Source of the DNA: Candidatus Kaiserbacteria bacterium
Lineage (GTDB): Bacteria > Patescibacteriota > Minisyncoccia > Phycocordibacterales > UBA2100
Assembly (NCBI GenBank): GCA_016217975.1
Contig: JACRFH010000028.1
Location: forward strand, 1-61,674
Direction: 5' to 3'
DNA length: 61,674 bases
Shown one piece after another: positions 9,736 through 59,776 of this stretch. Each line of letters begins with the position of its first letter. Position 1 is the stretch's first letter. The notes beneath the pieces were generated by a model. It was not told where the DNA came from. It made no database searches and saw nothing but the letters and a program-made list of their open reading frames with translations. Position numbers and translations under genes: made by a program.

Positions 9736-9758
9736 TGTCCGAGGTTCGACCTCGGACA
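9736..9758. repeat. REP-B palindrome copy 1 (TGTCCGAGG-TTCGA-CCTCGGACA)
   Basis: Perfect 9-bp arms with a 5-nt loop, 33 nt after the rpsA stop and 38 nt before the RAYT ATG. Confidence 0.9.
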
Positions 9759-9795
9759 CCGTGAGTGTCAGTTTGTGGTGTAGTATAATTTGGCA

Positions 9796-10443
9796 ATGAC
9801 GCGACAAATCGAGTTTGCGAGCGATGAGTTGTATCACATCTACAATCGCGGTACCGAGAAGCGCATTGTATTTCTTTCCCGCTGGGATTACGACCGCTTC
9901 CTGACGCTCCTTTATCTTTGCAATCAGGAGGAGCGAATAGACGAGCGTCTCAACAGGCATACTTTGGCGCAAGCATTGGAGTTGCCCCAAGGTTCACCGC
10001 TTGTGAATATCGTTGCCTATTGCCTGATGCCCAATCACTTCCATCTTGTGCTGCGCGAAATCAGCGGGAGCGGTATAAGTCGATACATGCAGAAGGTCAT
10101 CACGGGCTACACCATGTATTTCAATAAAAAGTATGATCGAAGTGGTGTCTTATTTCAGGGGAAATTCAAAGCGGCTCATGCAAAGGATGATCGTTACCTC
10201 CAATACCTCATGGCATATGTACATCTGAACCCGACTACACTGACTAACGTATTTGAGAAAGACAAACTCTCATCTACGGTACGATCATTAAAACAATATC
10301 GATATTCGAGCTATCTGGACTATATAGGCACAAAGCGTCCGGAAAACAAATTGGTAGACATGTACGCGCTACCTGGATATCTTTCAGGCCCAAAACATTT
10401 CAAGAAACATATCAAAGAGTGGCTCGATCTGAAACTGGATTAA
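9796..10443 (+). CDS. REP-associated tyrosine transposase (RAYT, IS200/IS605 TnpA-like HUH Y1 enzyme)
   Basis: HUH motif in CLMPNHFHLVL and catalytic Tyr motif in LMAYVHLNP, about 215 aa. A TATAAT box at 9784..9789 lies only 6 nt before the ATG. Confidence 0.8.
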   Translation: MTRQIEFASDELYHIYNRGTEKRIVFLSRWDYDRFLTLLYLCNQEERIDERLNRHTLAQALELPQGSPLVNIVAYCLMPNHFHLVLREISGSGISRYMQKVITGYTMYFNKKYDRSGVLFQGKFKAAHAKDDRYLQYLMAYVHLNPTTLTNVFEKDKLSSTVRSLKQYRYSSYLDYIGTKRPENKLVDMYALPGYLSGPKHFKKHIKEWLDLKLD

Positions 10444-10450
10444 CTCAAAA

Positions 10451-10473
10451 TGTCCGAGGTCGGACCTCGGACA
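10451..10473. repeat. REP-B palindrome copy 2 (TGTCCGAGG-TCGGA-CCTCGGACA)
   Basis: Same 9-bp arms as copy 1 with a variant loop, 8 nt after the RAYT stop. Confidence 0.9.
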
Positions 10474-23343: not shown

Positions 23344-23366
23344 ATGGCAAGGTTCAACCTTGCCAT
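23344..23366. repeat. REP-A palindrome copy 1 (ATGGCAAGG-TTCAA-CCTTGCCAT), terminator-like
   Basis: Perfect 9-bp arms with an A-run before and a T-run after, 36 nt downstream of the minus-strand stop at 23402. Confidence 0.9.
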
Positions 23367-23401: not shown

Positions 23402-23686
23402 TCAATTTGAGACAGGCCACTCGGTCTCAGGAAGATTTAGTGCCCCCGCTATTGTTCTAAGTTTGTGCTGAACTCTCAATACTCGTGCTTTCTCGGGACT
23501 CATGGCAGCTTTATCGAGCGTCTTATCTACGTCGGCCGTCGCCTCTCTTATTCGTACATATTCAGCCTTCATCTCCTGTTGGACAAACATATCCATATTC
23601 GGTTCACAGCGATCAGACAAGGCATTTACTTCCTGAAAAAGTATTTCCAGTGTTCCACTTTCTCCTGTATTTGGTTCTTGTTGCAT
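23402..23686 (-). CDS. Hypothetical small acidic helical protein
   Basis: 94-aa ORF followed by a terminator-like palindrome. No motif recognised. Confidence 0.4.
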   Translation of the reverse strand: MQQEPNTGESGTLEILFQEVNALSDRCEPNMDMFVQQEMKAEYVRIREATADVDKTLDKAAMSPEKARVLRVQHKLRTIAGALNLPETEWPVSN

Positions 23687-42505: not shown

Positions 42506-43225
42506 CTAGATGCGAACACGAATCATGGACGTGTTCAACATGTTGATCGTTCCTGCAGTCGAAGAGGCTGCTCCAGTGCCGATTGTGCCACCGAGACCAC
42601 CTGCTCCACCTGCCCCGCCAGTGCCAGCATGGGCACCGCCGTTGTTCTCGCTGCCTACGCCACCGTCAACGACGCCGCCGTTGCCAGCTGCACCACCGGT
42701 CGAGCCATCTGCCGTGTTCTCGCCTGTGCGAGCCTTGGCGCGTGTGTCGTTATCGATGTGGTTCTGGGTCGGATACTGTCTGCTGTTATCCGTGGTGACA
42801 TCAAGAGTCAAGCTGTTGATATCGCCGCAACCGCAGTCCCCGAGGTCAACACCAGTGTCGGTGTTGTTGAGGTCATTGGAGGTTCCAGCCGTTGCCGTCG
42901 CGTCACCTGTTGTGACGAGTCCGCCAGCACCGCCGTTGCCGCCGTTGCCGCCGTTGCCGCCGAGTGCACCGCCGTTGTTTTCAGAGCCGTTCGACGTTAC
43001 ATCGCCGCCCTGACCGCCTGTACCGCCCGTGCTTCCGCCGGCTGTGTTGTCGCCAGTGTGTGAGCGAGCAGAGGTCGTGTTGTCGATCGAACCACGGTTT
43101 GTGGTCGTGATCGTGATGTGTGTGGAATTCACAGCCGCAAACGCAGGAGCTGCGAATGCGAATGTTCCCATAGACGTAGCAACCATAGTTGCGATTGCTG
43201 CCGCCTTTCTGAGTGAGTTTGTCAT
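42506..43225 (-). CDS. Secreted Gly/Asn-rich protein with two copies of the shared module
   Basis: Start moved to MTNSLRKAAAIATMV (signal peptide). Internal duplication: SHTGDNTAGGSTGG...LVTTGDATATAGTSNDLNNT and ARTGENTADGSTGG...TIGTGAASSTAGTINMLNTSMIRVRI. Confidence 0.65.
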   Translation of the reverse strand: MTNSLRKAAAIATMVATSMGTFAFAAPAFAAVNSTHITITTTNRGSIDNTTSARSHTGDNTAGGSTGGTGGQGGDVTSNGSENNGGALGGNGGNGGNGGAGGLVTTGDATATAGTSNDLNNTDTGVDLGDCGCGDINSLTLDVTTDNSRQYPTQNHIDNDTRAKARTGENTADGSTGGAAGNGGVVDGGVGSENNGGAHAGTGGAGGAGGLGGTIGTGAASSTAGTINMLNTSMIRVRI

Positions 43226-43385
43226 ATCGATTTTATTCGTTATGTGTTTTGTAATGAATAAGTTCCTGAAAGAGGCGCTTGCACACCTCCTGCAGGTATC
43301 GACCATTAATGTGGGCTGGAGCCCACGACGCGATCTCCCTAGTCCAACCACGTCGTGTGCTTCACTTTTTAATTTTTCCTTCTAA

Positions 43386-43427
43386 AGAACAAACAAAAAC
43401 AGCGAACCGCGGAATACGCTTCGCTGT
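43386..43427 (-). terminator. Intrinsic terminator (minus strand) inside the 5' region of gene 42506..43225
   Basis: Stem AACAGCGAA / TTCGCTGTT (43397..43405 and 43419..43427) with an inner GCG/CGC extension, followed on the minus strand by TTTTTGTTTGTT. Confidence 0.6.
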
Positions 43428-43552
43428 TCACACTTTCTTTATTTCTCCTGCGGTCATAATTAACCGCTGGTTCCCCTTGCCCCGTGACAACGCAGTTGTT
43501 TTACGGGGCTTGTTGCTTCTTCGCCTTTTCGGGCGCGCACGCAACGTTTTGG

Positions 43553-43580
43553 GATTATCACTCGTCTGGCACACAAGTCA
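43553..43580 (-). promoter_or_regulatory. Candidate sigma70-type promoter (minus strand)
   Basis: On the minus strand: TTGACT (43580..43575), a 16-nt spacer, then GATAAT (43558..43553). Confidence 0.4.
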
Positions 43581-43624
43581 ATGAAATAGTGAGAGAAAGG
43601 CGCATTGCGCAGGTCTCTTGACTT

Positions 43625-43653
43625 CCTGTCAAAGAAAATCTCCCGTGCTATAA
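43625..43653 (+). promoter_or_regulatory. Candidate extended -10 promoter (plus strand)
   Basis: TGcTATAAT at 43645..43653 with a weak -35 CTGTCA at 43625..43630 (17-nt spacer). No plus-strand CDS lies downstream. Confidence 0.45.
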
Positions 43654-43659
43654 TTTCCC

Positions 43660-43881
43660 TCCAAACGAAGATACGGATTCGAAGTGGATCCAAAACCTAG
43701 GGAAACCAGCGAAAGCTGATCGGTCTTGGATCCGCTTCGGAGCCCTACCAAAGAAAGTCCGTACAAAAGGACCTTAATCGACCGGCATCCTATATGAAGA
43801 AGTGGGGGTGTCAATTTCTTTTCGTTGCGTAGTATGACGGAGGTACGGCACAAAAATGGCAAGGTTCAACCTTGCCATTTT
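43660..43881 (+). ncRNA. Candidate ~220-nt structured ncRNA of unknown class
   Basis: Bounded by the promoter above and by the REP-A2 hairpin plus T-run. Internal helices: GGATCCAA/TTGGATCC (43685..43692 / 43725..43732), CAGC-GAAA-GCTG (43706..43717), GTCC/GGAC, and a closing CCTCC/GGAGG (43657..43661 / 43838..43842). No convincing ORF. Confidence 0.35.
43855..43877. repeat. REP-A palindrome copy 2, bidirectional terminator
   Basis: AAAAATGGCAAGGTTCAACCTTGCCATTTTT, 29 nt downstream of the minus-strand stop at 43906. Confidence 0.9.
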
Positions 43882-43905
43882 TGTGCGGTTAGTTCGTAAT
43901 ATATT

Positions 43906-46758: not shown

Positions 46759-46999
46759 ATTGGTTTCCTTAAGTTATAAAAAACCTTAGGAGTAATGGCC
46801 ACTGATAATAATGACATGAGCGCAACCTCTGCCAATCCTATTGACTGCGTATGAAATCTTGGTGAACTGCGGGCCTGCGGGGCAGGTGTCTCGGAGGGGC
46901 CCCGCAGGGCTTGGCCCGAGGACAGGCGATTTTTCAGCAGAAAAATCGCGAACTCCGGAGAAACGCCTGCCCTGCGCGGCTTTCTTGATGGGCCCAACT

Positions 47000-47025
47000 A
47001 AAAACGCCCCTCCAGAGGCGTTTTT
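47000..47025 (-). terminator. Intrinsic (bidirectional-looking) terminator after gene 47053..49194
   Basis: AAAAACGCC-CCTCCAGA-GGCGTTTTT, 28 nt downstream of the minus-strand stop. Confidence 0.65.
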
Positions 47026-47052
47026 AGTTTTGAGTCTGGTTCTCGATCTCTG

Positions 47053-49194
47053 TCACTCGAGCGAGAAGTAGCGCTTCCACGCCCACCACCCACCGGCCAA
47101 GATCAGGATAAGGAGAACGAACAGCCACCAGAGACTGCGCACGTCTTTCATAGCTCCGGTAGAAGTCGCCGTACTCGTGCTCGAAGATGAGAAAACGCTT
47201 GACGACGGGTTCGTATCTACCGTTGTACCCGTTGGATTCTGCCTTGGTCCCGAAGCTGCCGGCGTATAGCCCGCACCCCCTGCTCTTGCGCGAGCGATGA
47301 TCGATTGCTCATCGGCGGTAAGCGGAAACGGCACGCCTCCGCAATACAACTCGTTTATCTTCTTTCGCGTCGTGAGGTAGACGTAGCCGGTGGGCTCGCT
47401 GATGCCCCATGGCGTAAGAACGTCTGATGCGTATTTCACCTGGAATTTCTTCACCGCGTCCAAGGTCGCCGCGTCATACATGCCACTTAGTGAGAGTGAA
47501 TTCTTTTCGAAAGCATTCAAGAATACTTGAAGACGCAAGACTTGTTCGCGATCGTTGCTTCTTCCCTCTTTGATGAAGCTCGTAAGGAATGCGCCACAGC
47601 TTCCGGCGGGCACCGTGGATGCGCCTAGCACTTCTCCGCCTCCGCCAACTCCAAATGTGGGGATGATAGAGCCGCCTCCGCCTCCAAGTGAGCCGACGAT
47701 CGGGCCGTTGCCTCCTCCTCCACCTCCCCCGCCTCCTCCTCCACCACCGCCTCCCGAAGACGCTGGGACTGTCGAAGGACTGCTTCCAGGGGCAGTGGAC
47801 ACGAAGCTCTTTGTCGCCGTGTTGTTATCAGTGTTTGAATCAGGGTTGTTGCTCGTTATCGTCGCAGTGTTGGTTATGGTAGCCCCTGCCGTGCTGCTGC
47901 CAACGGTGACGGCAATTTTCAGTTTCGTGCTCGAGCCATTTGCGAGCTCTCCGATTGTCCAGATGCCAGTCGAGGTGGCATATGCGCCATTTCCATCATC
48001 GGATACGTAGGTGACGCCGCTTGGCAACACATCAGTTACCGTCGCCCCCGCCGCAGTGTTGGGGCCGTTGTTGGTCGCAGTAAGCGTGTATAACACACCC
48101 GTCCCGGGATTTGGCGACGCCTCGCTCACTTCTTTTGCGAGCGACACATCAGCCGTCGAGGTGCTGTAGGTGTTGGTGACGGTGCAGACGCTCGTGCTGC
48201 CTACTCCCATCACGCCCTGACATCCCGAAGTCCGCGTCATCGCGTATGTCCCCGGGCCGCCGGTTTCCGTCACATTGAAGGCACCGACACCGAGCGTCAA
48301 TGTCGTGCCAGTAGCACTTCCCGTGAATGACGAATTAGAAACGCTTGTCCCCGTTACGTGCATGGTGAAGTCGCTCGAGGTCGCCGAGCCTCCAAGGGAG
48401 TTGTCGACGAGCTTCGTCACCGTGAGCTGCGGAATGAATGCAGCACAATCGGGATCGGCAAGATCTACAAGACCATCTCCATCGTTGTCGACTCCGTCGG
48501 AGCAAAGCGCGAGCGTGTTTTCTGGAATGCCGCCGCCTCCTCCGCCTCCTCCTCCGCCGGCAGTTGCAGCTTCGTTATTTCCTTCTCGATTGTATGATGC
48601 CGAATTTGACGCGTCAAAATCGGTGTGACATCCGGGATCAAGAATATCAATCTTTTCATCCAAGTCGTTATCAATCCCATCTCGGCACTGTGGTACAAAT
48701 AGAAGCTCGTTGTCCAAGTCCGGGTCATATGCGCCTAAACCACCTGTGCCCGTATTGATGTGACATGCAGGATCGCCAGCATCGATGAGTCCGTCGTCGT
48801 CGTTGTCGAGTCCGTCCCGACATTGCGGAACAAAAAGCGACTCATCATCGAGCGTTGGGTCGTAGGTATTATTGACATTTCCTCCCGTATGGCAGGCCGG
48901 ATCCTCGCCATCGATGAACCCGTCTGGTATGGGTTCGTTATCAATGCCGTCCGAGCACTGTGCCTGATGTCCGCCTTGCTCTTGGCACTGATCTGGAAAA
49001 AGATTTACAGGTGTACCATGACTATCTATTGCAGTGAAAACTATACAGACGATGCATCCCCCGGAATTCGGGAACGGGCAACTGTCGGCTGATAATGCTC
49101 GAGCTGGACGCTGGTTTCCCACGACGATGGAGACGATTGCAAGCACCAAAAAAAGCGTGCCGCAAATCGTCCACATCTTTTTTTTCAACGCCAT
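47053..49194 (-). CDS. 713-aa surface protein: four Cys-bracketed Asp-rich repeats, poly-Gly tracts, DUF11-like domains, peptidoglycan-binding domain, C-terminal membrane anchor
   Basis: QCSDGIDNE...DPACH, QCRDGLDNDDDGLIDAGDPACH, QCRDGIDNDLDEKIDILDPGCH, LCSDGVDNDGDGLVDLADPDCA. G11 and G15 runs. DUF11-like VSLAKEVSEASPNPGTGVLYTLTATNNGP. PG_binding_1-like REQVLRLQVFLN...AVKKFQVKYA. C-terminal WWLFVLLILILAGGWWAW. Confidence 0.7.
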   Translation of the reverse strand: MALKKKMWTICGTLFLVLAIVSIVVGNQRPARALSADSCPFPNSGGCIVCIVFTAIDSHGTPVNLFPDQCQEQGGHQAQCSDGIDNEPIPDGFIDGEDPACHTGGNVNNTYDPTLDDESLFVPQCRDGLDNDDDGLIDAGDPACHINTGTGGLGAYDPDLDNELLFVPQCRDGIDNDLDEKIDILDPGCHTDFDASNSASYNREGNNEAATAGGGGGGGGGGIPENTLALCSDGVDNDGDGLVDLADPDCAAFIPQLTVTKLVDNSLGGSATSSDFTMHVTGTSVSNSSFTGSATGTTLTLGVGAFNVTETGGPGTYAMTRTSGCQGVMGVGSTSVCTVTNTYSTSTADVSLAKEVSEASPNPGTGVLYTLTATNNGPNTAAGATVTDVLPSGVTYVSDDGNGAYATSTGIWTIGELANGSSTKLKIAVTVGSSTAGATITNTATITSNNPDSNTDNNTATKSFVSTAPGSSPSTVPASSGGGGGGGGGGGGGGGNGPIVGSLGGGGGSIIPTFGVGGGGEVLGASTVPAGSCGAFLTSFIKEGRSNDREQVLRLQVFLNAFEKNSLSLSGMYDAATLDAVKKFQVKYASDVLTPWGISEPTGYVYLTTRKKINELYCGGVPFPLTADEQSIIARARAGGAGYTPAASGPRQNPTGTTVDTNPSSSVFSSSSTSTATSTGAMKDVRSLWWLFVLLILILAGGWWAWKRYFSLE

Positions 49195-49484
49195 ACGCTC
49201 TGAAAATTAAAAGATGAGTAATAATTTTTTTCAATATTTTCTATGCCCAAGCGTACTACCGTGCACGCACGCGTCAATTTTTTTCTGCGTCAGACACCAA
49301 ATCAAATGGACTGTCTAACAGACAATCTCTGTCCGTGAGGATGTCCTTATGGAGTGCTCACTTTGAGCCATGAATCCAACGACGTCATTTGCCAGCTCGT
49401 CGCCATTTCGCACCTGTAGCCGCGTTCGAAAAACGAGAATTTCGCGTTCCAGCGACCAAAATGAAGTAATTTAATCTCCAAAAT

Positions 49485-49886
49485 TTAGAAGTATTTCTTC
49501 CAACTCTCAAACCGCGGCATTTTGCCGAGAATCTTGGTCGCGACAAAACGAGAAACTAGACCTATTACAAACCCCAACATTGCGAGTACAAGATCCTGCA
49601 TCAAAAAAAGCGAACTACTACCCCATTCGAAAAGAAGAATAGGAATCAGAAATACGATAACGAGTATATATTTCCTTCGCTCACCAAAAAGTACGAACAT
49701 TAGCGGTATAAGGAAGATGTAGTTAAGCATCAGTCCAACAATGTCGCCTAAGTCAAGCCAAGCCCCTCCTGATTCGTGGAAAATTGCTTTGTACAAACTC
49801 CAACTCTGCTTAGCCAAGAGTCCTGCGAATAGAATTACTGCCGCAAACAAAATTGCATATCTGATCACGTTTTTGACAGACGTCAT
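49485..49886 (-). CDS. Hypothetical four-helix membrane protein
   Basis: 133 aa, AT-rich, 4 nt after the upstream stop. Confidence 0.4.
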   Translation of the reverse strand: MTSVKNVIRYAILFAAVILFAGLLAKQSWSLYKAIFHESGGAWLDLGDIVGLMLNYIFLIPLMFVLFGERRKYILVIVFLIPILLFEWGSSSLFLMQDLVLAMLGFVIGLVSRFVATKILGKMPRFESWKKYF

Positions 49887-49889
49887 AAT

Positions 49890-52004
49890 TTAATGACTGA
49901 CTAGCCAATTAATATCTGCAACAAGCAAGTCGTACGCTTGCTTGTTGATGTCTCGATCCTCTCGCGCATCCTGAAGATCTTCTAGCATATCCTCATATGC
50001 CTCAATTCTATCACCTCTTTTCTTCATTTGCGCCGCTTTCCCCAGACTCTTCAAAAAAGAGTCTCTAAATTTCTTGGACTTAATCCATCTGGCATTATAT
50101 GCGCGATTGACATCATTTTGAGTACTACTGATTGTAGCTACTATTTGAACGCTACCAATCGTTGCATTTGATCCAGTCACTCCAACATTGATATCGTGCT
50201 CTGTTATCAAGTCCGGTTGCGTCAGGCCGGTGAAGAATTGCGTGGTTGAAGTCGCATCATTTATCGCACTGGCGGCAATCGTGTAAGACCCGCCAGACCC
50301 GGTGCCTTGCGTAATGACTTTGTATTTGCCATTCAGGGGATTGGGAATGGTGACATATTCTTCGTCCGTACCGAATCCGGAATAGAAAGCATCTGGTATC
50401 TCGTTAATTTCCTGACTAGTTGTGAACTCTTTTCCGATCCTCTTTCCATCCGGGCCTATCACAACAATATCTGCAGGGGAAAGAACCTGAAATATGAGTA
50501 TCCCCTTTGCGGTTCCTAACAATCCATGACTGTTGTTTATGAGAGTTGACGCCTCTTGACCAGCGAGCTTCTTGAACACCGATCCTTCGGTTGCGGTAGG
50601 AAGCTCGTTGTGTTCAAAATTCACAATGTTGAGATCGTTTGCAATGAAGCTTGCCGATGAGAGAGGAACGGTGCCATCTCCCACCCCTCTTTCCAAGCCT
50701 TGATCGGTTGATGCTTTCCCGAAATTCTCGGGCTTCCCGAAACCCCAGAGTGCAGTGGTGCTTATCGTGGTTGGTGGAACGACTCGAATGACGCTAATAG
50801 TGGTACTGCTAGTGAGTTTCCCTACAAAGTTTGTGATCGCTATGCCAGAGCTATAAAGCGCAGACATGTTATTGTCTAAATCCGACAAGAAAAGGTTTCC
50901 GGGATACCAATTCGTATTTGGATATGATGAAATAGCTGAAGAGTCGGCATGCTTAATGTAGCTGTAGACTGGTAATAATTCTTGTGCTGATGGAATTGGC
51001 TTACTTCTGACATAATTAAACAGACTCGTATATCCATTTTCTATGGCTTCGATTAAAAGAAAATACTTAAAGAGTCGCCCTTCACGTGTCACATCAGTTT
51101 CCCCGCCTTCCCACATCAAATATGCATTTGGGGCACCCATTTGCGGAGTGCCGAGGAAGATGAGTTTGCGGACGTCGTGGGCATAATCGCCAGATTGGAT
51201 ATATTGGCGGGCGACGAGTCCTCCCATTGAATGCGCCACGATATCCACCTTGTCGCATCCGCATATCGCTTTTACATCTGCAATCTTTTGTTTCAAGAGC
51301 GCAGCCGTGTCGCGATTTGATACATGCCAGTCATACGGGAAAGGAAATAGTGTTTTGTCTTTCTCATACCCATTGGCTACCAAGGTATCGATGAGATTGT
51401 CGTAGGTATGCGCGATCGGATCGATGAGCCACTCTCCGTTGTGCTCTGCAGAGCCCAAAATCCCGGGAATAATAATGACGGGAGTGAAATTGCTGCTCGC
51501 CGCTTCTTGTATGGTGAAATGCAGAGTCTCGATAGATGGCGGGCCAAATTGCGCATGGGCGGACTTAGCAAATATGTCGGCCAGAAATTGTTTGAGACGA
51601 TCATTGAAATTGAGCACCGGCCCCGGCTCCTCGATGACGTCAAGCTCGTACTCGCCTTCCGCGGGCCACGCAAGCTCCGTATCGCCCAATACATTTTGCC
51701 TAAAGAACGTACCAATCTGCACGCGCGCCGGCGTCGCGCCCGAATTGTCTATTGCATACAAGACGCCCGAGACCGGCCCAAACGCGAGCGGATCAAAAAT
51801 ATATGCGGGCGCGGGAGTATTGAGCGGTACCTCATAGGTGCCCCCGTGCGAAATCTCGATCTGCGTCGGCGTCCCACCATTTTCATCGCCCCAAATGAAA
51901 GTCGACGCGTGCGCGGATACGGGCAACGCAAAAATAAACGCGGCCGCGACCATTGCGACGTATGCTGATAAAACCCCAACGCCCGACCGCATGGCGCGCA
52001 ACAT
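49890..52004 (-). CDS. Secreted alpha/beta-hydrolase (lipase/LCAT/PGAP1-like) with large C-terminal extension
   Basis: Signal peptide after MLRAMRSGVG. Nucleophile elbow DIVAHSMGGLVARQY. The start was chosen downstream of the palindromes, and alternatives exist at 52028 and 51992. Confidence 0.65.
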   Translation of the reverse strand: MLRAMRSGVGVLSAYVAMVAAAFIFALPVSAHASTFIWGDENGGTPTQIEISHGGTYEVPLNTPAPAYIFDPLAFGPVSGVLYAIDNSGATPARVQIGTFFRQNVLGDTELAWPAEGEYELDVIEEPGPVLNFNDRLKQFLADIFAKSAHAQFGPPSIETLHFTIQEAASSNFTPVIIIPGILGSAEHNGEWLIDPIAHTYDNLIDTLVANGYEKDKTLFPFPYDWHVSNRDTAALLKQKIADVKAICGCDKVDIVAHSMGGLVARQYIQSGDYAHDVRKLIFLGTPQMGAPNAYLMWEGGETDVTREGRLFKYFLLIEAIENGYTSLFNYVRSKPIPSAQELLPVYSYIKHADSSAISSYPNTNWYPGNLFLSDLDNNMSALYSSGIAITNFVGKLTSSTTISVIRVVPPTTISTTALWGFGKPENFGKASTDQGLERGVGDGTVPLSSASFIANDLNIVNFEHNELPTATEGSVFKKLAGQEASTLINNSHGLLGTAKGILIFQVLSPADIVVIGPDGKRIGKEFTTSQEINEIPDAFYSGFGTDEEYVTIPNPLNGKYKVITQGTGSGGSYTIAASAINDATSTTQFFTGLTQPDLITEHDINVGVTGSNATIGSVQIVATISSTQNDVNRAYNARWIKSKKFRDSFLKSLGKAAQMKKRGDRIEAYEDMLEDLQDAREDRDINKQAYDLLVADINWLVSH

Positions 52005-52063
52005 ATGGCGGCCATTATGGCACTTCATGAACAAATGAACCTTAATCACCTGTGGAAAAGTAG

Positions 52064-52103
52064 ATATATCTCTCCTTGCGCGGCCGCGCAAGGAGAGATA
52101 TAT
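52064..52103. repeat. Perfect 40-bp palindrome without loop (centre GCGGCCGC)
   Basis: ATATATCTCTCCTTGCGCGG|CCGCGCAAGGAGAGATATAT. It lies 8 nt from REP-A3. Confidence 0.95.
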
Positions 52104-52110
52104 GTTAAAA

Positions 52111-52133
52111 ATGGCAAGGTTCGACCTTGCCAT
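52111..52133. repeat. REP-A palindrome copy 3 (loop variant TTCGA), terminator-like
   Basis: AAAAATGGCAAGGTTCGACCTTGCCATTTT, 70 nt downstream of the minus-strand stop at 52204. Confidence 0.9.
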
Positions 52134-52203
52134 TTTCACGGCGTGCATTGCTGTTTTTAGGTATATCTCTAGCCTCCGCGGCCGCATCAGCTAGCGATAT
52201 ATA

Positions 52204-53277
52204 TCAAAACGCCTCGGCTGCTGAAGCCGTGATTGCGCTCGGATCCACTGTGGGCCGCGTGAAGATGAAATTGTCGGCTGTTGCAAATAGAGTGCCCATG
52301 AGGACAAAAAGCGCGCCCGCGGCGATTGCTTTGCCGCGGTGATGCCACCTCAATTCAAGCCCGGTCGCAAGTGCAAATATCGCCGCGAGGAGGAGCGCCA
52401 CGAAATAATATGCGTATTGCAAAAGCGAGCGCGGCGAACCGAACATGTGCGCCCAGAATGATGCGTATCGCGGCGCAGGAGCGGACTGGACTCCAGATTG
52501 CGCGCTCTGCGGTTGTCCTGCGGTGGAATCAAGCACGGTTGCAGGCGAGGGCGAAGCAGCAAGTACATCTTTTTGAGAAACTTCTTTTCCGGTGAGCGGT
52601 GCGGGCGCCAGCTGATCGGCTGGCTGCGTGCTTGCACCGAGCACAACCGTCCCTGTTGCAGTGGTTGCAAGCGCTGGCTCGGCGGGATTTTGCGGCGTGA
52701 TCTCATGGGTCGGCGCACCCGCCTTCGCCGAGGCTTCGGCGGGCAAGCCAAATTCCTGCACGACAAATGTCGTCGAGCGGCCCTCATAGAAGCCTTGCGC
52801 AACCGCGATCCCGATTTCGGTAAAATGCGGATCAAGAATATTTTCGCGATGCGTGCGCGAATTCATCCATGCATTATTTACATCCGTCGAATCGCTAAAA
52901 TCTACCGCCAGATTCTCCCCCGCATATTTGTATCTATACCCAGCTTCCTCAAACCAGTGCCATGGATCGACACCCTCCGGCGAAATATGTGCAAAGTAGC
53001 TCTTAGCTGCCATGTCGTTGGCCTTGGCTTGTGCCGCAGCAACCAAAAGAGGATTGAGAGTCAGCGTCGAGACGTTGTTGACATTGCGATCGTTGTTGGC
53101 CATGTCAACCAAGACCGCGGCCATGACCGATGCGTACTGAGCAGTGCCAATAAGATATTTATCGAGCGAGGTGGCAACAAAGATCACGATAGTGAGCGCC
53201 GCGACGGAAAGCCCTGCCGCGCCTACGAGCTCAAATTCTCGCCAAGACAGTTTCTTGTCTTTATGATTCTTCACCAT
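52204..53277 (-). CDS. Membrane-anchored CAP/SCP (PR-1-like, YkwD-type) domain protein
   Basis: N-terminal helix. CAP core AKANDMAAKSYFAHISPEGVDPWHWF...YAGENLA...AWMNSRTHRENILDP. Low-complexity linker and C-terminal helices. Confidence 0.75.
   Translation of the reverse strand: MVKNHKDKKLSWREFELVGAAGLSVAALTIVIFVATSLDKYLIGTAQYASVMAAVLVDMANNDRNVNNVSTLTLNPLLVAAAQAKANDMAAKSYFAHISPEGVDPWHWFEEAGYRYKYAGENLAVDFSDSTDVNNAWMNSRTHRENILDPHFTEIGIAVAQGFYEGRSTTFVVQEFGLPAEASAKAGAPTHEITPQNPAEPALATTATGTVVLGASTQPADQLAPAPLTGKEVSQKDVLAASPSPATVLDSTAGQPQSAQSGVQSAPAPRYASFWAHMFGSPRSLLQYAYYFVALLLAAIFALATGLELRWHHRGKAIAAGALFVLMGTLFATADNFIFTRPTVDPSAITASAAEAF
52718..52745. repeat. 28-nt hairpin element, copy 2 (identical to 22803..22830), in frame inside the CAP-domain gene
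   Basis: The same 28 nt are again read on the minus strand as PAEASAKAG. Confidence 0.9.
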
Positions 53278-53295
53278 GCAATTATATGCGCAATA

Positions 53296-55110
53296 TCACC
53301 CAAACGTAAACGTATAGACTTGTAGACCGGGATCAGAAATAATAAATTCAAGCAAATGATCGCCATAGACAGTGTCGTTTACAATAGTGTAGAGGCGATT
53401 CTCGTTGATTCGCACGTAGCTCCTGCCATCTTTGAAAATAATATCTTTGCCGGCAGACGCGGCATTCAGTGGCTCGCTATCGCGCAACACTTCTACCTCG
53501 ATGTCCTTCCCTGTCTTTGATCCGGCGACGATGTAGACGCTCTTGGCCTGGTAGCGATAGTCAATCCGATCGCTGCCGACGCTGCTGCTCCCCACGCCCG
53601 GAGGTGTCTCCGCATATTCAGGCATGATGCTCCACGATCCGATAAGATAGAGTGCGTTCTTTCTCACCGTATCCGGTTCGGTAAATATTTGCACGCCGCT
53701 CTTTCCGGCAATGCCATTCCCTAAATATTCGTTGCGAAGCGCGCCAAAATACGTCTCTCCCGAACCGAGTTTAGTTTCGTCAACCGATATCACCCCTGAA
53801 AGAGATGCAGCGGGCGCAGGCGGCATTGCCATCCCTAGCCTTTGTGCGCGCTCCTGCAAAGCAGTCTGTATTGCACGCTCGGTCTCGTCATAATTCCCTT
53901 CTCCAGCATGATCAAACACGATGTAGCCATCGATGTCGATGAGATACTTGCGCGGCCAATACTGATTGCCAAAGGCCCTCCACGTGCTGTACTCGTTGTC
54001 GAGCACCACGGGATATTTGAGTCCAAAACCAGTTACCGCATTCTGCACATTTCTAAGCACATGCTCGAAAGCAAACTCTGGCGTATGCACACCGATTATT
54101 TCGAGTCCCTGATCATGATATGTGTCGTACCAATCTCTCAAGTACGGAAGCGTACGCTGACAATTTATGCAGCTATAGGTCCAGAAATCAATGAGTACAA
54201 CTCTTTTCCCTTTGAATTCGCTGATCGTTATCGGTGTACCATCCGTATTAATGTATCCGTCGATTGAGGCAAGTTCGGGAGCTCTGTCAAACTGCATTGC
54301 CTTCTTTGCGTCACCGACGACTCCCGAAGTAGACGATGCGTCCTTGCAGGTACCATCGGAACATAGCAGCGGATTTTTTGCGGATTGTGCTCGTCTCTCC
54401 AGGAGATTTTGCTCAAGCTTGGTGATGTCATACACATGTGAAATGAGCCATGCTTCGAGCGGCTGCTCATAGCCCACGAATATAATGACACCAACGACGA
54501 TGAAGAGCGCGCCGATCGTACGCTTAAACCAGCCTCTCGGGTCCGCTGCAAGCCCAAGCTTGTCGACAAGTCTCTGTCCGACAAGTGCGACAACCAAAAG
54601 CATGAGCACGAGTCCGATCGTGTATGCGAGAAGATCCAATAGCCCCACCGCAAATGACGCTGGGAGCACGGTTGCGAGGATAACAAAATAAGTCGGACTG
54701 CACGTGGAAAACACGGGCCCGAGCGCCGCTCCCACCAATACATCTCCCCAGAATGAATGCAGTTGATAGCCACTAGCCACTAGGCGATTAGAATTCCGAT
54801 TCAGACGATTCACGACGGGAAGAGGATCCCAGATTTGCGGAAAGAGTGTTATGAGACCAAAGATGATCAGGATTCCGCCCGAAAACCGCTCGTAGGCATA
54901 TTGCGGAATGTCGATGAATAGCGTCGAAGATTTAAGAAGAAGTGTAAAAAGAATGACCGACACGCCAAGCGAGAGCGCGACGGTAACGGCACGAGCGCGA
55001 TTGACGCCGCCGGAGACCGACCCTCCGACAATGATCGGAAGAAGCGGCAGCACGCATGGCGCAAGCACGGTGAGCACACCAGCAAGAAACGCGATCAAGA
55101 AGAGTGTCAT
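53296..55110 (-). CDS. DipZ-like fusion: CcdA/DsbD-type membrane domain, thioredoxin-like (redoxin) domain, C-terminal beta-sandwich
   Basis: N-terminal CcdA-like helices with LAPCVLPLLP. Redoxin domain with WTYSCINCQRTLP (CxxC). Confidence 0.8.
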   Translation of the reverse strand: MTLFLIAFLAGVLTVLAPCVLPLLPIIVGGSVSGGVNRARAVTVALSLGVSVILFTLLLKSSTLFIDIPQYAYERFSGGILIIFGLITLFPQIWDPLPVVNRLNRNSNRLVASGYQLHSFWGDVLVGAALGPVFSTCSPTYFVILATVLPASFAVGLLDLLAYTIGLVLMLLVVALVGQRLVDKLGLAADPRGWFKRTIGALFIVVGVIIFVGYEQPLEAWLISHVYDITKLEQNLLERRAQSAKNPLLCSDGTCKDASSTSGVVGDAKKAMQFDRAPELASIDGYINTDGTPITISEFKGKRVVLIDFWTYSCINCQRTLPYLRDWYDTYHDQGLEIIGVHTPEFAFEHVLRNVQNAVTGFGLKYPVVLDNEYSTWRAFGNQYWPRKYLIDIDGYIVFDHAGEGNYDETERAIQTALQERAQRLGMAMPPAPAASLSGVISVDETKLGSGETYFGALRNEYLGNGIAGKSGVQIFTEPDTVRKNALYLIGSWSIMPEYAETPPGVGSSSVGSDRIDYRYQAKSVYIVAGSKTGKDIEVEVLRDSEPLNAASAGKDIIFKDGRSYVRINENRLYTIVNDTVYGDHLLEFIISDPGLQVYTFTFG

Positions 55111-55146
55111 GCAGAAATACTATCATTTTCGGGCTATAATTCCGAT

Positions 55147-56820
55147 ATGATATTGCGAGATCGAATAGCCGCTCTTATCAAGGGCGACGTACTGGATGAT
55201 GCGTTTACGCGGGCGAAATACAGTCGTGACACGAGTATTTTTGAGCGCTCTCCCAAAGTCGTCGTGTTCCCCAAAAATGCGGATGATGTTTCCGCGCTCG
55301 TAAAATTCGTGAATGACGCGCGAGACCACGGAGAGAATCTCTCTGTCACCGCACGATCCGCCGGTACCGATATGACCGGCGGACCTCTCACCGATTCAAT
55401 CTCTGTCGTCTTCACGAAATATATGAATCACATAATTGATATTGGGCCTGATCCCGACGCAAAGGACGGGACAGGTTATGCTGTTGCCGAGCCTGGTGTG
55501 TATTACCGCGATCTCGAAAAAGAGTCGCTAGCTAAATACGGCACTATATATCCGGCGTATCCCGCGTCGCGTGATCTCTGCGCGATCGGCGGCATTGTGT
55601 CTAATAATTCTGCGGGTGAATTGAATCTCCGTTACGGTAAGACTGATAGACACGTACGCGAGCTCGACGTTGTTCTTTCAGATGGTTCGCATGCGCAGAT
55701 TCAACCGATTTCGTTAAACGAACTTGCCGCCAAAGAAAAAGAAGCAACATTTGAAGGACGCCTCTACAAACAGATTCATGCGCTCATTGATGAGAACCGC
55801 GAGGAGATTGAGAAAGCCCGACCCACCGTCACCAAAAATTCTGCAGGATACGGTTTGTGGAATGTGATTGACGAAAAAAAGGGCATATTCGATCTTAATC
55901 AGCTGATCGTCGGAAGCCAAGGCACGCTTGCCTTTGTCACCCGCGCCAAGCTCGAAATGGTGAAGACAAAACCACATCGTGCTATGCTCGTCGTTTTCCT
56001 TGCGGATCTCCACATACTGCCCGAGATAGTGACTCGCGTGCTCGCCTTCGATCCCGAATCATTTGAATCATATGACGACAAGACCTTTTCTCTCGCGGTA
56101 CGCCTCATGCCGCGAATGCTTTCGCACATGGGCCCATATGCGGCGCTCAAACTCGGACTCGCCTTCATCCCGGATATTTGGACTGTAATCCGGGGAGGTG
56201 TTCCGAAACTGATTCTACTTGCTGAATTCGCCGAAGATTCGGGAGATGAAGCGGTCGAGAAAGCGCGAATGGCGAGACACTCGCTCGAGGGTCTCGCGGT
56301 CTCGACTCGCATTGCAAAAAGCGAGGCACAGTCGGCCAAGTACTGGAAAGTGCGACGAGAGAGCTTCGCGCTCCTGCGCAAGAATTTCCATGGCCGGTAT
56401 GCGGCACCCTTTATCGACGACATTGTCGTACACGTCGAGGACTACCCTAAATTCCTGCCCGAGCTCGAAAATCTGGTCCGCGGACATCGGTTCATCTACA
56501 CAATCGCTGGGCACATCGGCGATGGCAATTTTCACATCATTCCGCTTGTAAAAATGAACGGCGAAGCGGATCGCAAAGAAATGCTCGAACTCATGCCCAA
56601 AGTCTATGCACTTGTAGGGAAATACAGGGGCTCGATTACCGGCGAGCACAACGACGGCATCATTCGCACCCCGTACTTGCCCACGATGTTTAGCCCTCGT
56701 ATGATCGAGCTTTTCGCGCAGATAAAACACATCTTCGACCCCCTAGGTGTCTTCAATCCGGGAAAAAAGACGGGCGGGACCTTTGCCGATATCGAACGCA
56801 GTATGATCAAGAAAATATGA
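55147..56820 (+). CDS. FAD-linked oxidase/dehydrogenase (GlcD / D-lactate dehydrogenase-like)
   Basis: FAD_binding_4-like N-terminus (VVFPKNADDVSALVKFVN...VTARSAGTDMTGG). C-terminal GEHNDGIIR and IFDPLGVFNPGK. Confidence 0.8.
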   Translation: MILRDRIAALIKGDVLDDAFTRAKYSRDTSIFERSPKVVVFPKNADDVSALVKFVNDARDHGENLSVTARSAGTDMTGGPLTDSISVVFTKYMNHIIDIGPDPDAKDGTGYAVAEPGVYYRDLEKESLAKYGTIYPAYPASRDLCAIGGIVSNNSAGELNLRYGKTDRHVRELDVVLSDGSHAQIQPISLNELAAKEKEATFEGRLYKQIHALIDENREEIEKARPTVTKNSAGYGLWNVIDEKKGIFDLNQLIVGSQGTLAFVTRAKLEMVKTKPHRAMLVVFLADLHILPEIVTRVLAFDPESFESYDDKTFSLAVRLMPRMLSHMGPYAALKLGLAFIPDIWTVIRGGVPKLILLAEFAEDSGDEAVEKARMARHSLEGLAVSTRIAKSEAQSAKYWKVRRESFALLRKNFHGRYAAPFIDDIVVHVEDYPKFLPELENLVRGHRFIYTIAGHIGDGNFHIIPLVKMNGEADRKEMLELMPKVYALVGKYRGSITGEHNDGIIRTPYLPTMFSPRMIELFAQIKHIFDPLGVFNPGKKTGGTFADIERSMIKKI

Positions 56821-57860
56821 CTCGATTCCTCCGCTATATTCCATATTCGATATTCCTCATCCCTTTCAGTGCTTCCGCGCACGAGGTGTACGTCCTCGAC
56901 TCAGCCGCCATCATGCGCGATATCGTAAATCCCTCGCCAAATCCCCTCGCGCTCATTTTGCAAGACCCGCAACAATTCCTCTTCTGGGCTCTCATAGGCG
57001 CAATACTCATCTCGACTGTTTTTACGATGTCAATTACGCACCGCGTGCAGGATACGTTTTCACCATTTCTCATGCGCCTCAAGCCCTGGGCAGCGCCAAT
57101 TGCCCGCGTTACGCTCGGCGCATGCCTCATCGCGAGTGCATATAATAATGCGCTCTTCGGGCCAGAGCTTCCGTTTTCTGATTTCGGCACCTTTGGAAGA
57201 ATGATCCAGATCACGCTCTATATAAGCGGCATCTTGAGTCTTGTTGGACTTTGGACGCGCGCCGCAGGCTCTCTCGCGCTCTTGATATTTGCCGCTGGAA
57301 TCGCGAAATACAACATCTACATGTTCACCTACGCCAATTACCTCGGCGAGATATTCTTTGCGATGATCCTTGGAAGCGGACGATTCTCTCTTGATCACTG
57401 GCTGAACCTCCCAAAGATGGCAAGGTTCAACCTTGCCATCTTTGCCAAACTCGGACGGCGATTGGAACCGTACGCATTTCCCGTTTTGCGTATCCTTTTC
57501 GGAATCTCAATCGCATTCGCTTCGTACTATGCCAAATTTGTACACAGTCAACTCGCGCTCGACGTCGTCACCAAGTATCACCTTACCAACTTCTTCCATT
57601 TCGACCCTCTCTTTATTGTCCTCGGCGCATTCTGCGTGGAACTTTTGATCGGACTATTCTTGATACTCGGCGTCGAGATTCGCCATACTGCCCTTTTCTT
57701 CCTATTCTGGCTCGCCCTTTCGCTCCTCTATTTCGGCGAGGCCGTCTGGCCGCACCTTGTGCTCGTGGGCGTCCTCCTCGCGCTCTTTTGCCACGGCTAC
57801 GACAAACTCTCCTTAGAAGGCTACTACTTCAAACGAGGGTCCCGTGAGCCTGTGTTATGA
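56817..57860 (+). CDS. Polytopic membrane protein, two DoxX-like halves joined by a linker that contains a REP-A palindrome
   Basis: 347 aa with helices on both sides of residue ~200. The linker LNLPKMARFNLAIFAKLG is encoded by the palindrome at 57413..57443. The DoxX assignment is tentative. Confidence 0.5.
   Translation: MTRFLRYIPYSIFLIPFSASAHEVYVLDSAAIMRDIVNPSPNPLALILQDPQQFLFWALIGAILISTVFTMSITHRVQDTFSPFLMRLKPWAAPIARVTLGACLIASAYNNALFGPELPFSDFGTFGRMIQITLYISGILSLVGLWTRAAGSLALLIFAAGIAKYNIYMFTYANYLGEIFFAMILGSGRFSLDHWLNLPKMARFNLAIFAKLGRRLEPYAFPVLRILFGISIAFASYYAKFVHSQLALDVVTKYHLTNFFHFDPLFIVLGAFCVELLIGLFLILGVEIRHTALFFLFWLALSLLYFGEAVWPHLVLVGVLLALFCHGYDKLSLEGYYFKRGSREPVL
57413..57443. repeat. REP-A palindrome copy 4 with 13-bp arms, in frame inside a CDS
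   Basis: AAAGATGGCAAGG-TTCAA-CCTTGCCATCTTT. It has no flanking A5/T5 runs, unlike copies 1-3. Confidence 0.9.
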
Positions 57861-57897
57861 TTTTACTGTATTTATTTAGCAAGTAATTGATCGCGAT

Positions 57898-58236
57898 ATG
57901 TCACAAGACGACATGAAAGATGGTGAAGAAATCAAGATGACGCTGGAGCAGACTTTAAAAAACTTGGAAGCCACATTTAAGGAGAAGATTGAAGGCATGT
58001 TGGAAGATAAAGAGACAAGGGCATCATCGGACGAAGATTCAGATATGGGTAATTTCCTCCAAAACCTTCAGAGTTTTTGGACGAAAAAGAGAGGTGGTAC
58101 TAATGACTTTAAAAAGCAGCAGACTCTTGATCAAGTAGAGGCGTGGGCTAAGACTCTGCATCCAAAAGCGGAGATGTTTATGGAAGCAGACCCAGAAAGT
58201 GACTCGGAAGATCTCACCCTGCGATTGAACCCTTAG
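57898..58236 (+). CDS. Hypothetical acidic protein
   Basis: 112 aa, Glu/Asp/Lys-rich. No motif recognised. Confidence 0.35.
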   Translation: MSQDDMKDGEEIKMTLEQTLKNLEATFKEKIEGMLEDKETRASSDEDSDMGNFLQNLQSFWTKKRGGTNDFKKQQTLDQVEAWAKTLHPKAEMFMEADPESDSEDLTLRLNP

Positions 58237-58781
58237 ACTATTTCCCTCTTGGATCGGACGAACAACATCAGCACAATAAGAAATGCAAACAGCGAGAGGG
58301 CCATCATCGGGAAAGTTACATAGCCAAACTCAACGAAGGTAATTTTGGCACAGCTGGGACCATTCGCCGAACACGGCAGCGTGCCCGCAGGAAACATCTG
58401 TAGTGCATGATGATAGAGCGCAAACGCGGCACCTAATGCGGAGAGCCAGATTGAATACAGCACGGCCGCTCTTTGGAGATCGGGCTTCCAGAGTGCAAGA
58501 CCAAAAAGAAGCGCTTGTGGATACAGACATACGCGCTGCCACCAGCACAGGAAGCATGGTTCAAAGCCGAGGACTTCAGAATAGAAAAGCGTAAGACCGA
58601 TCCCGACAAGTGAGAGTAGGAATCCAATCCATATACCCCACCGAGCAAGAAAGTTGGCAATGTCTTGAAGGTCGGTGAATTTACGACGGAGGAAATAGAG
58701 TGCGAGAAATGCGGCAGCACCAAATTGCATCAAGACCGTGCCGACCGAGAGCCAGTAATTAAGCGTTTCCGTCGGAAACAT
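58233..58781 (-). CDS. DsbB/BdbC-family disulfide bond formation protein
   Basis: Four helices, the CxxC in FEPCFLCWWQRVCLYP, and a second Cys pair (LPCSANGPSC). Confidence 0.75.
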   Translation of the reverse strand: MFPTETLNYWLSVGTVLMQFGAAAFLALYFLRRKFTDLQDIANFLARWGIWIGFLLSLVGIGLTLFYSEVLGFEPCFLCWWQRVCLYPQALLFGLALWKPDLQRAAVLYSIWLSALGAAFALYHHALQMFPAGTLPCSANGPSCAKITFVEFGYVTFPMMALSLFAFLIVLMLFVRSKREIV

Positions 58782-58784
58782 ATC

Positions 58785-59219
58785 TCATTGAGCTTGTGAG
58801 CTCTGCGACGATGGTGTAGTTATCTTTGAAAACGCAGTTTTGTCTCCGGTAACCGTGCAGCCAGAAAATGCTGCCCACTCGTCTATGGTGTGCTCGCCAC
58901 CGAGCTCTGCGCCATCGGGCCGCACCCACGTAGGATACCCTTTTATTCCTTTATCGATACAGACTTGCGTCTGGCCCTGGCCATCAGGAGTCGAGCATTC
59001 CACGTAGGAAAGATAGTGGGCCGCTGAACCGAAAAGTGCCTTGGTGCGCTGACAATGCGGGCACCAGAAGGCCCCGTAGAAAATCACACCCTGTGATTTG
59101 ATGCACTGCGCCAATTTGTCGTACTGACTCGGCTTGGCCGTTATCAAGAAGCTCGACGCAAGACCAACGACAATAAGCGCCGCGAGAATTCCCCAGAAGA
59201 TCAAGACTCCTTTCTTCAT
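58785..59219 (-). CDS. Membrane-anchored thioredoxin-fold protein (DsbA/VKOR-partner-like)
   Basis: N-terminal anchor. GAFWCPHCQRTK is the CxxC. Lies 3 nt upstream of the DsbB-like gene. Confidence 0.7.
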   Translation of the reverse strand: MKKGVLIFWGILAALIVVGLASSFLITAKPSQYDKLAQCIKSQGVIFYGAFWCPHCQRTKALFGSAAHYLSYVECSTPDGQGQTQVCIDKGIKGYPTWVRPDGAELGGEHTIDEWAAFSGCTVTGDKTAFSKITTPSSQSSQAQ

Positions 59220-59248
59220 TGCGGAAAATATAGCATACTTCTGGTGAA

Positions 59249-59776
59249 ATGGTATACGAGGACATCATCGGCAGGATGACGAAGGGCTCAGGGTTTGGCC
59301 GTGACGAATCCGAGACCTCTTTCGTACTCAAAGTAGTGCAGCCCGGCTTGGTTGGTCTCATGGACGGCTCGGTCTCGACGCTCGCTCCGATTTTTGCCGC
59401 CGCATTTGCGACGCACGAACCGCATATCGCTTTTCTTATCGGCGCATCGGCCGCGACAGGCGCGGGCATTTCTATGGCCTTTGCAGAAGCACTCTCGGAT
59501 ACCGGCGAAGAAACAGGCCGCGGGCACCCATTCATGCGCGGCGCGATTGTCGGTGTGATGACATTCGTCGGCGGTATCTTGCACACGCTCCCATTTCTTC
59601 TCTCGCACTACACCGCGGCACTTTCCCTTGCCTTCCTGGTTGTCGGAATCGAGCTCGTTGCCATTGCGTACATCCGCTTCCATTTTTTCAAAATGCGATT
59701 TTGGATGTCGGTCCTGCAAGTCGTCCTCGGCGGTGCCTTGGTATTAGCGGCCGGCCTCCTGATAGGCAGCGCGTGA
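59249..59776 (+). CDS. VIT1/CCC1-family iron/manganese transporter (membrane domain only)
   Basis: GLVGLMDGSVSTLAPIFAAAF and MAFAEALSD motifs, 175 aa. Confidence 0.7.
   Translation: MVYEDIIGRMTKGSGFGRDESETSFVLKVVQPGLVGLMDGSVSTLAPIFAAAFATHEPHIAFLIGASAATGAGISMAFAEALSDTGEETGRGHPFMRGAIVGVMTFVGGILHTLPFLLSHYTAALSLAFLVVGIELVAIAYIRFHFFKMRFWMSVLQVVLGGALVLAAGLLIGSA

Follow-up and report, generated by a model that had tools for sequence, protein, structure and literature searches.

A REP-A palindrome read in frame in the variable linker of a two-repeat membrane protein, most likely as a tolerated passenger

How does a palindrome that elsewhere in a genome lies mostly between genes come to be translated as part of a conserved membrane protein, and does it serve that protein or the expression of its gene in any way? 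This question is raised by a copy of the REP-A palindrome family within the 61,674-nt contig JACRFH010000028.1 of a Candidatus Kaiserbacteria assembly (GCA_016217975.1). The whole of this stretch is called the window here, and it is contig C16 of a 0.94-Mb genome in 65 contigs that is 90.6% complete. We consider it probable that this copy is a tolerated passenger in the variable linker of the protein, and that its partner is a Y1 transposase encoded elsewhere in the genome that resembles the REP-associated tyrosine transposases (RAYTs). Most likely, the passenger has no designed function at this site. The features on which the argument depends are the following.

56817..57860, plus strand: host gene, encoding a 347-residue polytopic membrane protein; its start overlaps the stop of an upstream FAD-linked oxidase gene by 4 nt
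57081..57386, plus strand: DoxX-like repeat 1, about residues 89-190, KPWAAPIARVTLG...GSGRFSLD (from the hhalign comparison of N and C halves and the alignment)
57387..57464, plus strand: variable linker, about residues 191-216 (from the alignment, its anchors and the AlphaFold model)
57412..57444, no strand: REP-A palindrome in the coding sequence, read P199-KMARFNLAIF-A210
57465..57857, plus strand: DoxX-like repeat 2, residues 217-347, EPYAFPVLRILFG... (from a weak Pfam match and hhalign)

A preliminary description of this DNA had placed the palindrome AAAGATGGCAAGG-TTCAA-CCTTGCCATCTTT at 57413-57443, with arms of 13 bp, inside an open reading frame (ORF) that reads through it. This is borne out, with arms that are longer than was claimed. 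The palindrome extends to perfect arms of 16 nt, such that CAAAGATGGCAAGGTT-C-AACCTTGCCATCTTTG forms a perfect 33-base palindrome at 57412-57444, of which the arms (57412-57427 and 57429-57444) are 100% complementary around a central C at 57428. The core shared by the REP-A family occupies 57417-57439, and the flanks CAAAG and CTTTG lengthen the stem symmetrically, leaving the copy in the coding sequence still perfect. ORF 56817-57860 passes through all of this in frame and without a stop, as P199-K-M-A-R-F-N-L-A-I-F-A-K211, and the local RNA fold at the palindrome reaches -29.6 kcal/mol, with a z-score of -5.4 relative to shuffles. An assembly or adapter artefact was judged unlikely, given that the identical core occurs in independent public assemblies, and that related genomes carry the REP-A stem with different loops.

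The same description had counted this as the fourth REP-A copy, and the window indeed holds four exact copies of the core ATGGCAAGGnnnnnCCTTGCCAT (23 nt, also given as ATGGCAAGGTTCAACCTTGCCAT), starting at 23344, 43856, 52111 and 57417. When up to three mismatches are allowed, five matches are found in the window, against 0.01 in dinucleotide-preserving shuffles. Across the whole genome there are 12 copies on six contigs, of which 11 match the core exactly and the last has a single mismatch. Nine of these 12 lie outside genes, at least seven of them no more than about 90 nt beyond a stop codon, and the copy at C28:5654 sits between two gene starts. The intergenic copies are flanked by A-runs and T-runs, and most have TTTT(T) after the stem. 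Scans of public genome and metagenome contigs for the exact core returned 14 loci, all from other organisms, in which the copies are almost all intergenic. The three further copies in the window are as follows.

23344..23366: REP-A copy between genes, 36 nt past the stop codon of minus-strand ORF 23402-23686
43856..43878: REP-A copy between genes, 28 nt past the stop codon of minus-strand ORF 43906-46758; extends to GCACAAAAATGG...CCATTTTTGTGC
52111..52133: REP-A copy between genes, loop variant TTCGA, 71 nt past the stop codon of minus-strand ORF 52204-53277

In Neisseria, inverted uptake sequences form terminators. The idea that REP-A could be a DNA-uptake sequence was dropped, since the copies number only 12 and the half-site shows no enrichment of its own beyond the palindromes. 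A further hairpin, CCCGCCTTCGCCGAGGCTTCGGCGGGC, is read in frame at 22803-22830, within minus-strand ORF 22046-23278.

What, then, could move such a palindrome? A Pfam Y1_Tnp search of the genome gave six matches, and all six ORFs carry the HUH motif CLMPNHFHL together with the tyrosine motif Y[VI]HLNP. Five of the six are flanked by a perfect palindrome of their own, at both ends if the contig extends far enough, and the sixth (on contig C4) is without one. Wherever both ends can be read, the two flanking palindromes are in opposite orientation. The ORF at C28:5670-6362 is bracketed by inverted REP-A copies, at 5654-5676 (centre G) and 6371-6393 (centre C); its product has the motifs PNHFH and YVHLNP, and scores 31.4 bits against Pfam Y1_Tnp, above the cut-off of 23 bits. 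Because inverted REP-A copies bracket this transposase gene, the layout by which REP-associated tyrosine transposases are defined, REP-A is, as judged from sequence, part of a REP/RAYT system with its putative cognate Y1 transposase on contig C28. The same architecture is present in the window itself, where a second family, REP-B (TGTCCGAGGT..ACCTCGGACA), flanks another such gene at 9736-9758 and 10451-10473.

9736..10473, plus strand: RAYT-like Y1 transposase gene of the window (9796-10443) with its REP-B flanks, given for context

RAYT-like Y1 genes are widespread among relatives, being present in 56 of the 61 genomes of the genus (this genome counted), with up to 15 matches per genome of about 1 Mb. 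Among 11 related loci that were scanned, five have a palindrome next to the transposase ORF, at one end or at both, and three of these (L140, L143 and L144) have a family of their own on both sides. An inner AGGT-n-ACCT core is common to several of the palindromes that flank related transposases. A third copy of the palindrome lies inside the transposase gene itself in L140, in L143 and, at C59:56987, in the present genome.

So what kind of protein carries the palindrome, and at which place? Two DoxX-type halves had been proposed for it, and this stands only in part. The N half and the C half are mutually similar in a profile-profile comparison (hhalign probability 68.6%, E 4.6e-5, 73 columns), whereas the Pfam DoxX family (PF07681) matches the C-terminal half alone, at residues 223-304, and below threshold (16.9 bits versus a cut-off of 23.6, E 0.01). 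There are 466 homologs at E <= 0.001, and a precomputed PF07681 match is found in five of the 120 that are listed; in some database sources, homologs go under the names 'DoxX family' or 'YphA (DoxX/SURF4 family)'. In an alignment of 30 sequences, a signal-peptide-like N-terminus is followed by AHEVY.L...SP.P, and then by two helix bundles joined by a variable segment. This AHEVY.L ... SP.P segment (56880-56945, residues 22-43) is invariant in the 30 homologs and is the best-conserved part of the protein, and it lies outside every family model. The AlphaFold model has a pLDDT of 82.9 and a pTM of 0.82, and residues 201-210, the peptide encoded by the palindrome, form the weakest block of the protein body at a pLDDT of 60. 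A fold search against the PDB gave no match at E <= 0.001, and the only high-probability Foldseek matches, to vitamin K-dependent gamma-carboxylase, are weak (probability 0.96/0.84, TM-score 0.40-0.42, E 0.5-1.3).

The segment between the two bundles varies in both sequence and length over the 30 aligned homologs. Between the anchors GSGRFS and EPYAF there are 31 codons in the window, versus 25, 26 and 25 in the three nearest orthologs for which DNA was at hand (about 70% identity), which makes the linker five to six codons longer here, a net gain of 15-18 nt. A hairpin scan over the whole of 28 orthologous genes found REP-A in none of them, and found no hairpin of at least 9 bp anywhere in these genes except in a single ortholog (L027, G045:C3). 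At about residue 195, the homologous linker of that ortholog contains an unrelated, GC-only perfect palindrome of 30 bp, GCGCGGCGCCGGCGC/GCGCCGGCGCCGCGC, which is read as GDGAAPARAGAARP. Because G045 carries a different palindrome at this place, the linker seems to have tolerated palindromes more than once. The linker is probably cytoplasmic, as suggested by its positive charges and by the equivalent positions of the starts of the two repeats. The earlier proposal that the palindrome lies in a tolerant loop is thus supported by the variable linker, by the low pLDDT of residues 201-210, and by the unrelated palindrome in one ortholog. The possibility, also raised at the time, that orthologs free of REP elements share the same linker proved false, since the linkers of orthologs are both different and shorter. 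That a hidden frameshift or stop splits the gene is very unlikely, as both halves align to orthologs in one frame.

Taken as a sequence of events, a REP-A copy would have come to lie within the gene of a conserved membrane protein that has two DoxX-like repeats, in the variable linker just before repeat 2. It would have survived there with the frame kept and only five to six residues added, at a place where sequence and length are free to vary. The protein would be made as one chain, as in all relatives, and the palindrome would have no designed function in this gene. One route of arrival would be insertion mediated by the RAYT, in the course of which some target bases were lost; the alternative would be a microhomology-anchored replacement of a short patch, templated by another REP copy. 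We regard these two routes as about equally likely, and the copies in other genes of the same genome bear on the choice.

In total, 33 copies were counted in five palindrome families, of which about 11 lie in frame in real genes. These are listed below by family, gene and encoded peptide.

REP-A, this host gene: KMARFNLAIF
REP-A, GT4 glycosyltransferase (C59:9040): WQGSTLPF
REP-A, PheT (C40:35060): WQGSTLTL
ATGTAGGACA..., LeuRS: KCRTSDVLH
ATGTAGGACA..., ArgRS: KCRTSDVLH
ATGTAGGACA..., CarB: SVGHPMSYV
ATGTAGGACA..., TsaE: NVGHPMSYT
ATGTAGGACA..., beta-CASP RNase-like protein: NVGHPVSYI
REP-B, IleRS: LSEVEPRT
ATGATGGATTTC..., MurD: NDGFQKSIT
ATGATGGATTTC..., own transposase: MMDLGNPS

The copies in LeuRS, ArgRS, CarB, TsaE, the beta-CASP protein, IleRS and MurD are located at C11:6548, C46:11559, C57:24332, C31:5600, C56:33162, C46:15760 and C53:5547, respectively, and the identities of LeuRS, ArgRS, TsaE and MurD were confirmed by curated models above their cut-offs. 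One palindrome thus yields one peptide in different proteins, with KCRTSDVLH occurring twice, [NS]VGHP[MV]SY three times and WQGSTL twice. Such sites are not confined to this genome. The corresponding LeuRS loop in genome G014 (L080) has a different perfect palindrome, TATGGATGTC-G-GACATCCATA, which is read MDVGHPYI, and that in G009 (L074) has an apparently decayed copy, ACT AGG ACG TCC GAC GTT CTA.

It is in the lengths and borders of these copies that the second route finds its arguments. According to this explanation, which rivals the arrival step alone, the copy did not transpose into the linker. Instead, a gene-conversion-like patch templated by another REP and anchored by microhomology would have overwritten linker codons that were already partly similar, adding 15-18 nt in the process. 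The two other intragenic REP-A copies, in the glycosyltransferase and in PheT, show a net length change of zero when compared with 19 orthologs each (loci L033-L072), and in comparisons with 15-19 orthologs each, the LeuRS and ArgRS copies add about two codons and the CarB copy a clean five. As such, cores of 23-25 nt come with net gains of approximately 0, 0, +6, +6, +15 and, for the present copy, +15 to +18 nt. Moreover, at the codon level the glycosyltransferase orthologs already share arm bases at both borders, with GG.TGGCAAG matching the left arm and CC.T.T on the right, and the sole mismatch of the PheT copy coincides with the ancestral TTG-ACx codons, resembling the edge of a converted tract. 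These orthologs are only 50-75% identical, however, which makes guesses of the ancestral border bases, and loops gain and lose residues anyway. Furthermore, the resemblance at the borders could be due to chance, and the mechanism, which can be likened to short-patch illegitimate recombination, is not documented for REPs in the REP literature compared here. We therefore give this account of the arrival somewhat less than an even chance. Across the genome, the facts of length and border suggest that imprecise, microhomology-anchored replacement would fit at least as well as clean insertion, with orthologs too distant to decide between them.

A broader version can be formulated, albeit one that we find doubtful: in this lineage of Patescibacteria, REPs might enter coding DNA not only by cut-and-paste but also by microhomology-anchored patches templated by other copies, with partly similar codons being overwritten. 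If true, this would explain the zero-length copies in the glycosyltransferase and PheT, as well as the range of net gains, 0-18 nt, seen with cores of 23-25 nt. It would also explain why palindromes recur in the same loops of LeuRS and of the DoxX-like protein across species.

Whichever way the palindrome arrived, might it have been kept as a control element? The hairpin could act as a partial intrinsic terminator, or as a pause site for the ribosome or RNA polymerase, thereby uncoupling the expression of the two halves of the protein. The very stable stem, which is perfect and extended by compensating flanks, speaks for this, as do the intergenic members of the family, lying just 3' of stop codons between A-runs and T-runs. 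A role of REP-A as an intergenic terminator had in fact been taken for granted in the preliminary description. The intergenic copies do follow stop codons, but a consensus terminator scan of 43000-59500 made no call at 43856, 52111 or 57417, the three REP-A copies that it covered, which leaves this role putative and weighs against control by the hairpin. In the host gene, the core stem is followed by CTTTGCC, with only three T, and in the best fold these U pair with the upstream AAA. A search of 57200-57700 against Rfam gave no match. Orthologs have no hairpin of 9 bp or more save for the one unrelated palindrome, which implies that the family needs no such control, and the fact that about a third of the genome's REP copies lie in unrelated housekeeping genes points to accident rather than design. 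Control by the hairpin is therefore improbable in our view, and nothing indicates a function at this site.

The same holds more strongly for the suggestion that the ATG at 57417 is an internal start from which the second DoxX-like repeat is also made separately. This ATG is in frame and precedes the conserved start of repeat 2 (EPYAFP) by 16 codons, and repeat 2 alone does resemble a DoxX unit. Yet the 22 nt upstream (TCACTGGCTGAACCTCCCAAAG) contain no purine-rich, Shine-Dalgarno-like motif of the GGAGG or AGGA kind, and the ATG is buried in the 16-bp stem. M201 has no Met opposite it in any of the 29 other sequences of the alignment, and the same ATG is present in every REP-A copy wherever it is located. 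We consider such a start highly improbable.

The last proposal, that the element fused two formerly separate DoxX-like genes, is rejected as next to impossible: the weak similarity of the halves does point to an ancient duplication or fusion at some time, but the 120 listed homologs (of 466), spread over Patescibacteria, are all single proteins of about 314-388 residues, most covering 94-100% of the query at identities down to 48%, 26 full-length orthologs of the same genus without REP likewise keep the two-repeat single chain, and synteny is kept in relatives, so that the one-chain form long predates the lineage-specific palindrome.

Several observations do weigh against the passenger reading and its link to a REP/RAYT system, and must be taken into account. 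No strain with an empty site was found, either in the homolog list or by the exact-core scans, in which none of the 14 loci has the host gene. With the nearest ortholog only 72-74% identical, it is not defined exactly which bases were gained or replaced. A net gain of 15-18 nt is not that of an element of 23-33 nt, and simple insertion thus does not fit. Moreover, REP-A begins ATGGCAAGG and is without the tag GTAG or CGTC, and the best NCBIfam match of the C28 transposase, REP_Tyr_transpos (REP-associated tyrosine transposase), reaches 41 bits against a curated cut-off of 80. GTAG does occur in this genome, within the stem of another family, ATGTAGGACA..., and the transposases are, as far as these scores indicate, distant relatives of the curated RAYT family. 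The mobility of REP-A is best called putative. Finally, a stem that is perfect and symmetrically extended could mean that the event is very recent, or that the hairpin is under selection. Because the perfect stem may reflect either of these, the neutrality of the passenger is assumed.

The surroundings of the host gene are conserved. The order FAD-linked oxidase, host gene, DsbB, thioredoxin-fold protein is retained in relatives, and within the cluster (55147-59219) the genes for DsbB and the thioredoxin-fold protein lie on the minus strand. It could represent a quinone-linked thiol-oxidation module. The host gene is separated from DsbB by an ORF for an acidic protein of 112 residues, on the plus strand at 57898-58236. 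This ORF is lineage-specific or spurious, because DsbB directly follows the host gene in the relatives L001 and L032.

For this single case, the outcome is that of a selfish palindrome surviving in an unimportant loop, and of a gene that is settled as one gene rather than a recent fusion. The wider setting is a gene-dense genome of 0.94 Mb with six RAYT-like transposases, in which housekeeping genes, among them those for tRNA synthetases, CarB and MurD, contain about a third of the copies in frame. Should the zero-length copies be templated patches, REP/RAYT systems would gain a new mode of spreading, and with it would bring templated mutations of several bases at once into the essential genes of very small genomes. 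Anyone annotating small genomes should, in that case, expect short recurrent peptides encoded by repeats in conserved proteins. Intragenic REPs as such have already been published, and it is the high intragenic share and the zero-length copies that are worth attention.

How does this compare with known systems? With the DoxX/HTTM superfamily, the host protein shares the weak Pfam DoxX match on repeat 2 and the names of homologs. It differs by having two repeats and the conserved AHEVYVL...SPNP segment, and by a Pfam score below threshold. Bidirectional intrinsic terminators have in common with the palindrome family a GC-containing stem between an A-run and a T-run, and the intergenic copies lie after stops. 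The copy in the coding sequence, in contrast, has the flanks CAAAG and CTTTG with three T only and lies in translated RNA, and the three REP-A copies covered by the terminator scan are not called; any terminator role of REP-A is putative.

A closer parallel is offered by the palindromic elements of Rickettsia (RPEs), which Ogata et al. in 2000 reportedly described as inserted in frame in protein-coding genes. The long RPE-1 elements measure about 100-150 bp and add roughly 30-50 residues, and to our knowledge no dedicated transposase is known for RPEs. Common to both are palindromic repeats in a reduced genome that are read in frame in conserved, functional genes, at places that tolerate additional residues. 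The REP-A element is shorter, at 23-33 bp, adds five to six residues, and has a cognate Y1 transposase present. The in-frame palindromic elements of Rickettsia have also been discussed together with REPs, the intragenic RPE-4 and RPE-6 being shorter, REP-like repeats (Di Nocera, De Gregorio & Rocco 2013, PMC3733652).

The closest parallel is that of REP elements and their RAYT transposases, or REPtrons (Nunvar et al. 2010, PMC2817692, is a related reference). In a title-level literature search, no title pairs RAYT with Patescibacteria, while 'REP-associated tyrosine transposase' and 'Candidate Phyla Radiation' do co-occur in one paper. Compared with REPtrons, REP-A lacks the GTAG/CGTC tag and forms a tiny family of 12 copies, in a 0.94-Mb host from the Patescibacteria and with a transposase distant from curated RAYTs (41 versus 80 bits). 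The intragenic share is high (about 11 of 33), and some copies add no length. Shared with REPtrons are the short perfect palindrome, whose several near-identical copies are dispersed and mostly located shortly after genes, the single Y1/HUH transposase gene bracketed by inverted copies, and the presence of several families in one genome, each with its own transposase. Likewise, certain copies are located entirely within known genes, those for tRNA synthetases among them. For published intragenic REPs, which also have sites in tRNA synthetase genes, it has been proposed that they are perhaps neutral since they fall in flexible linkers or loops (PMC3733652).

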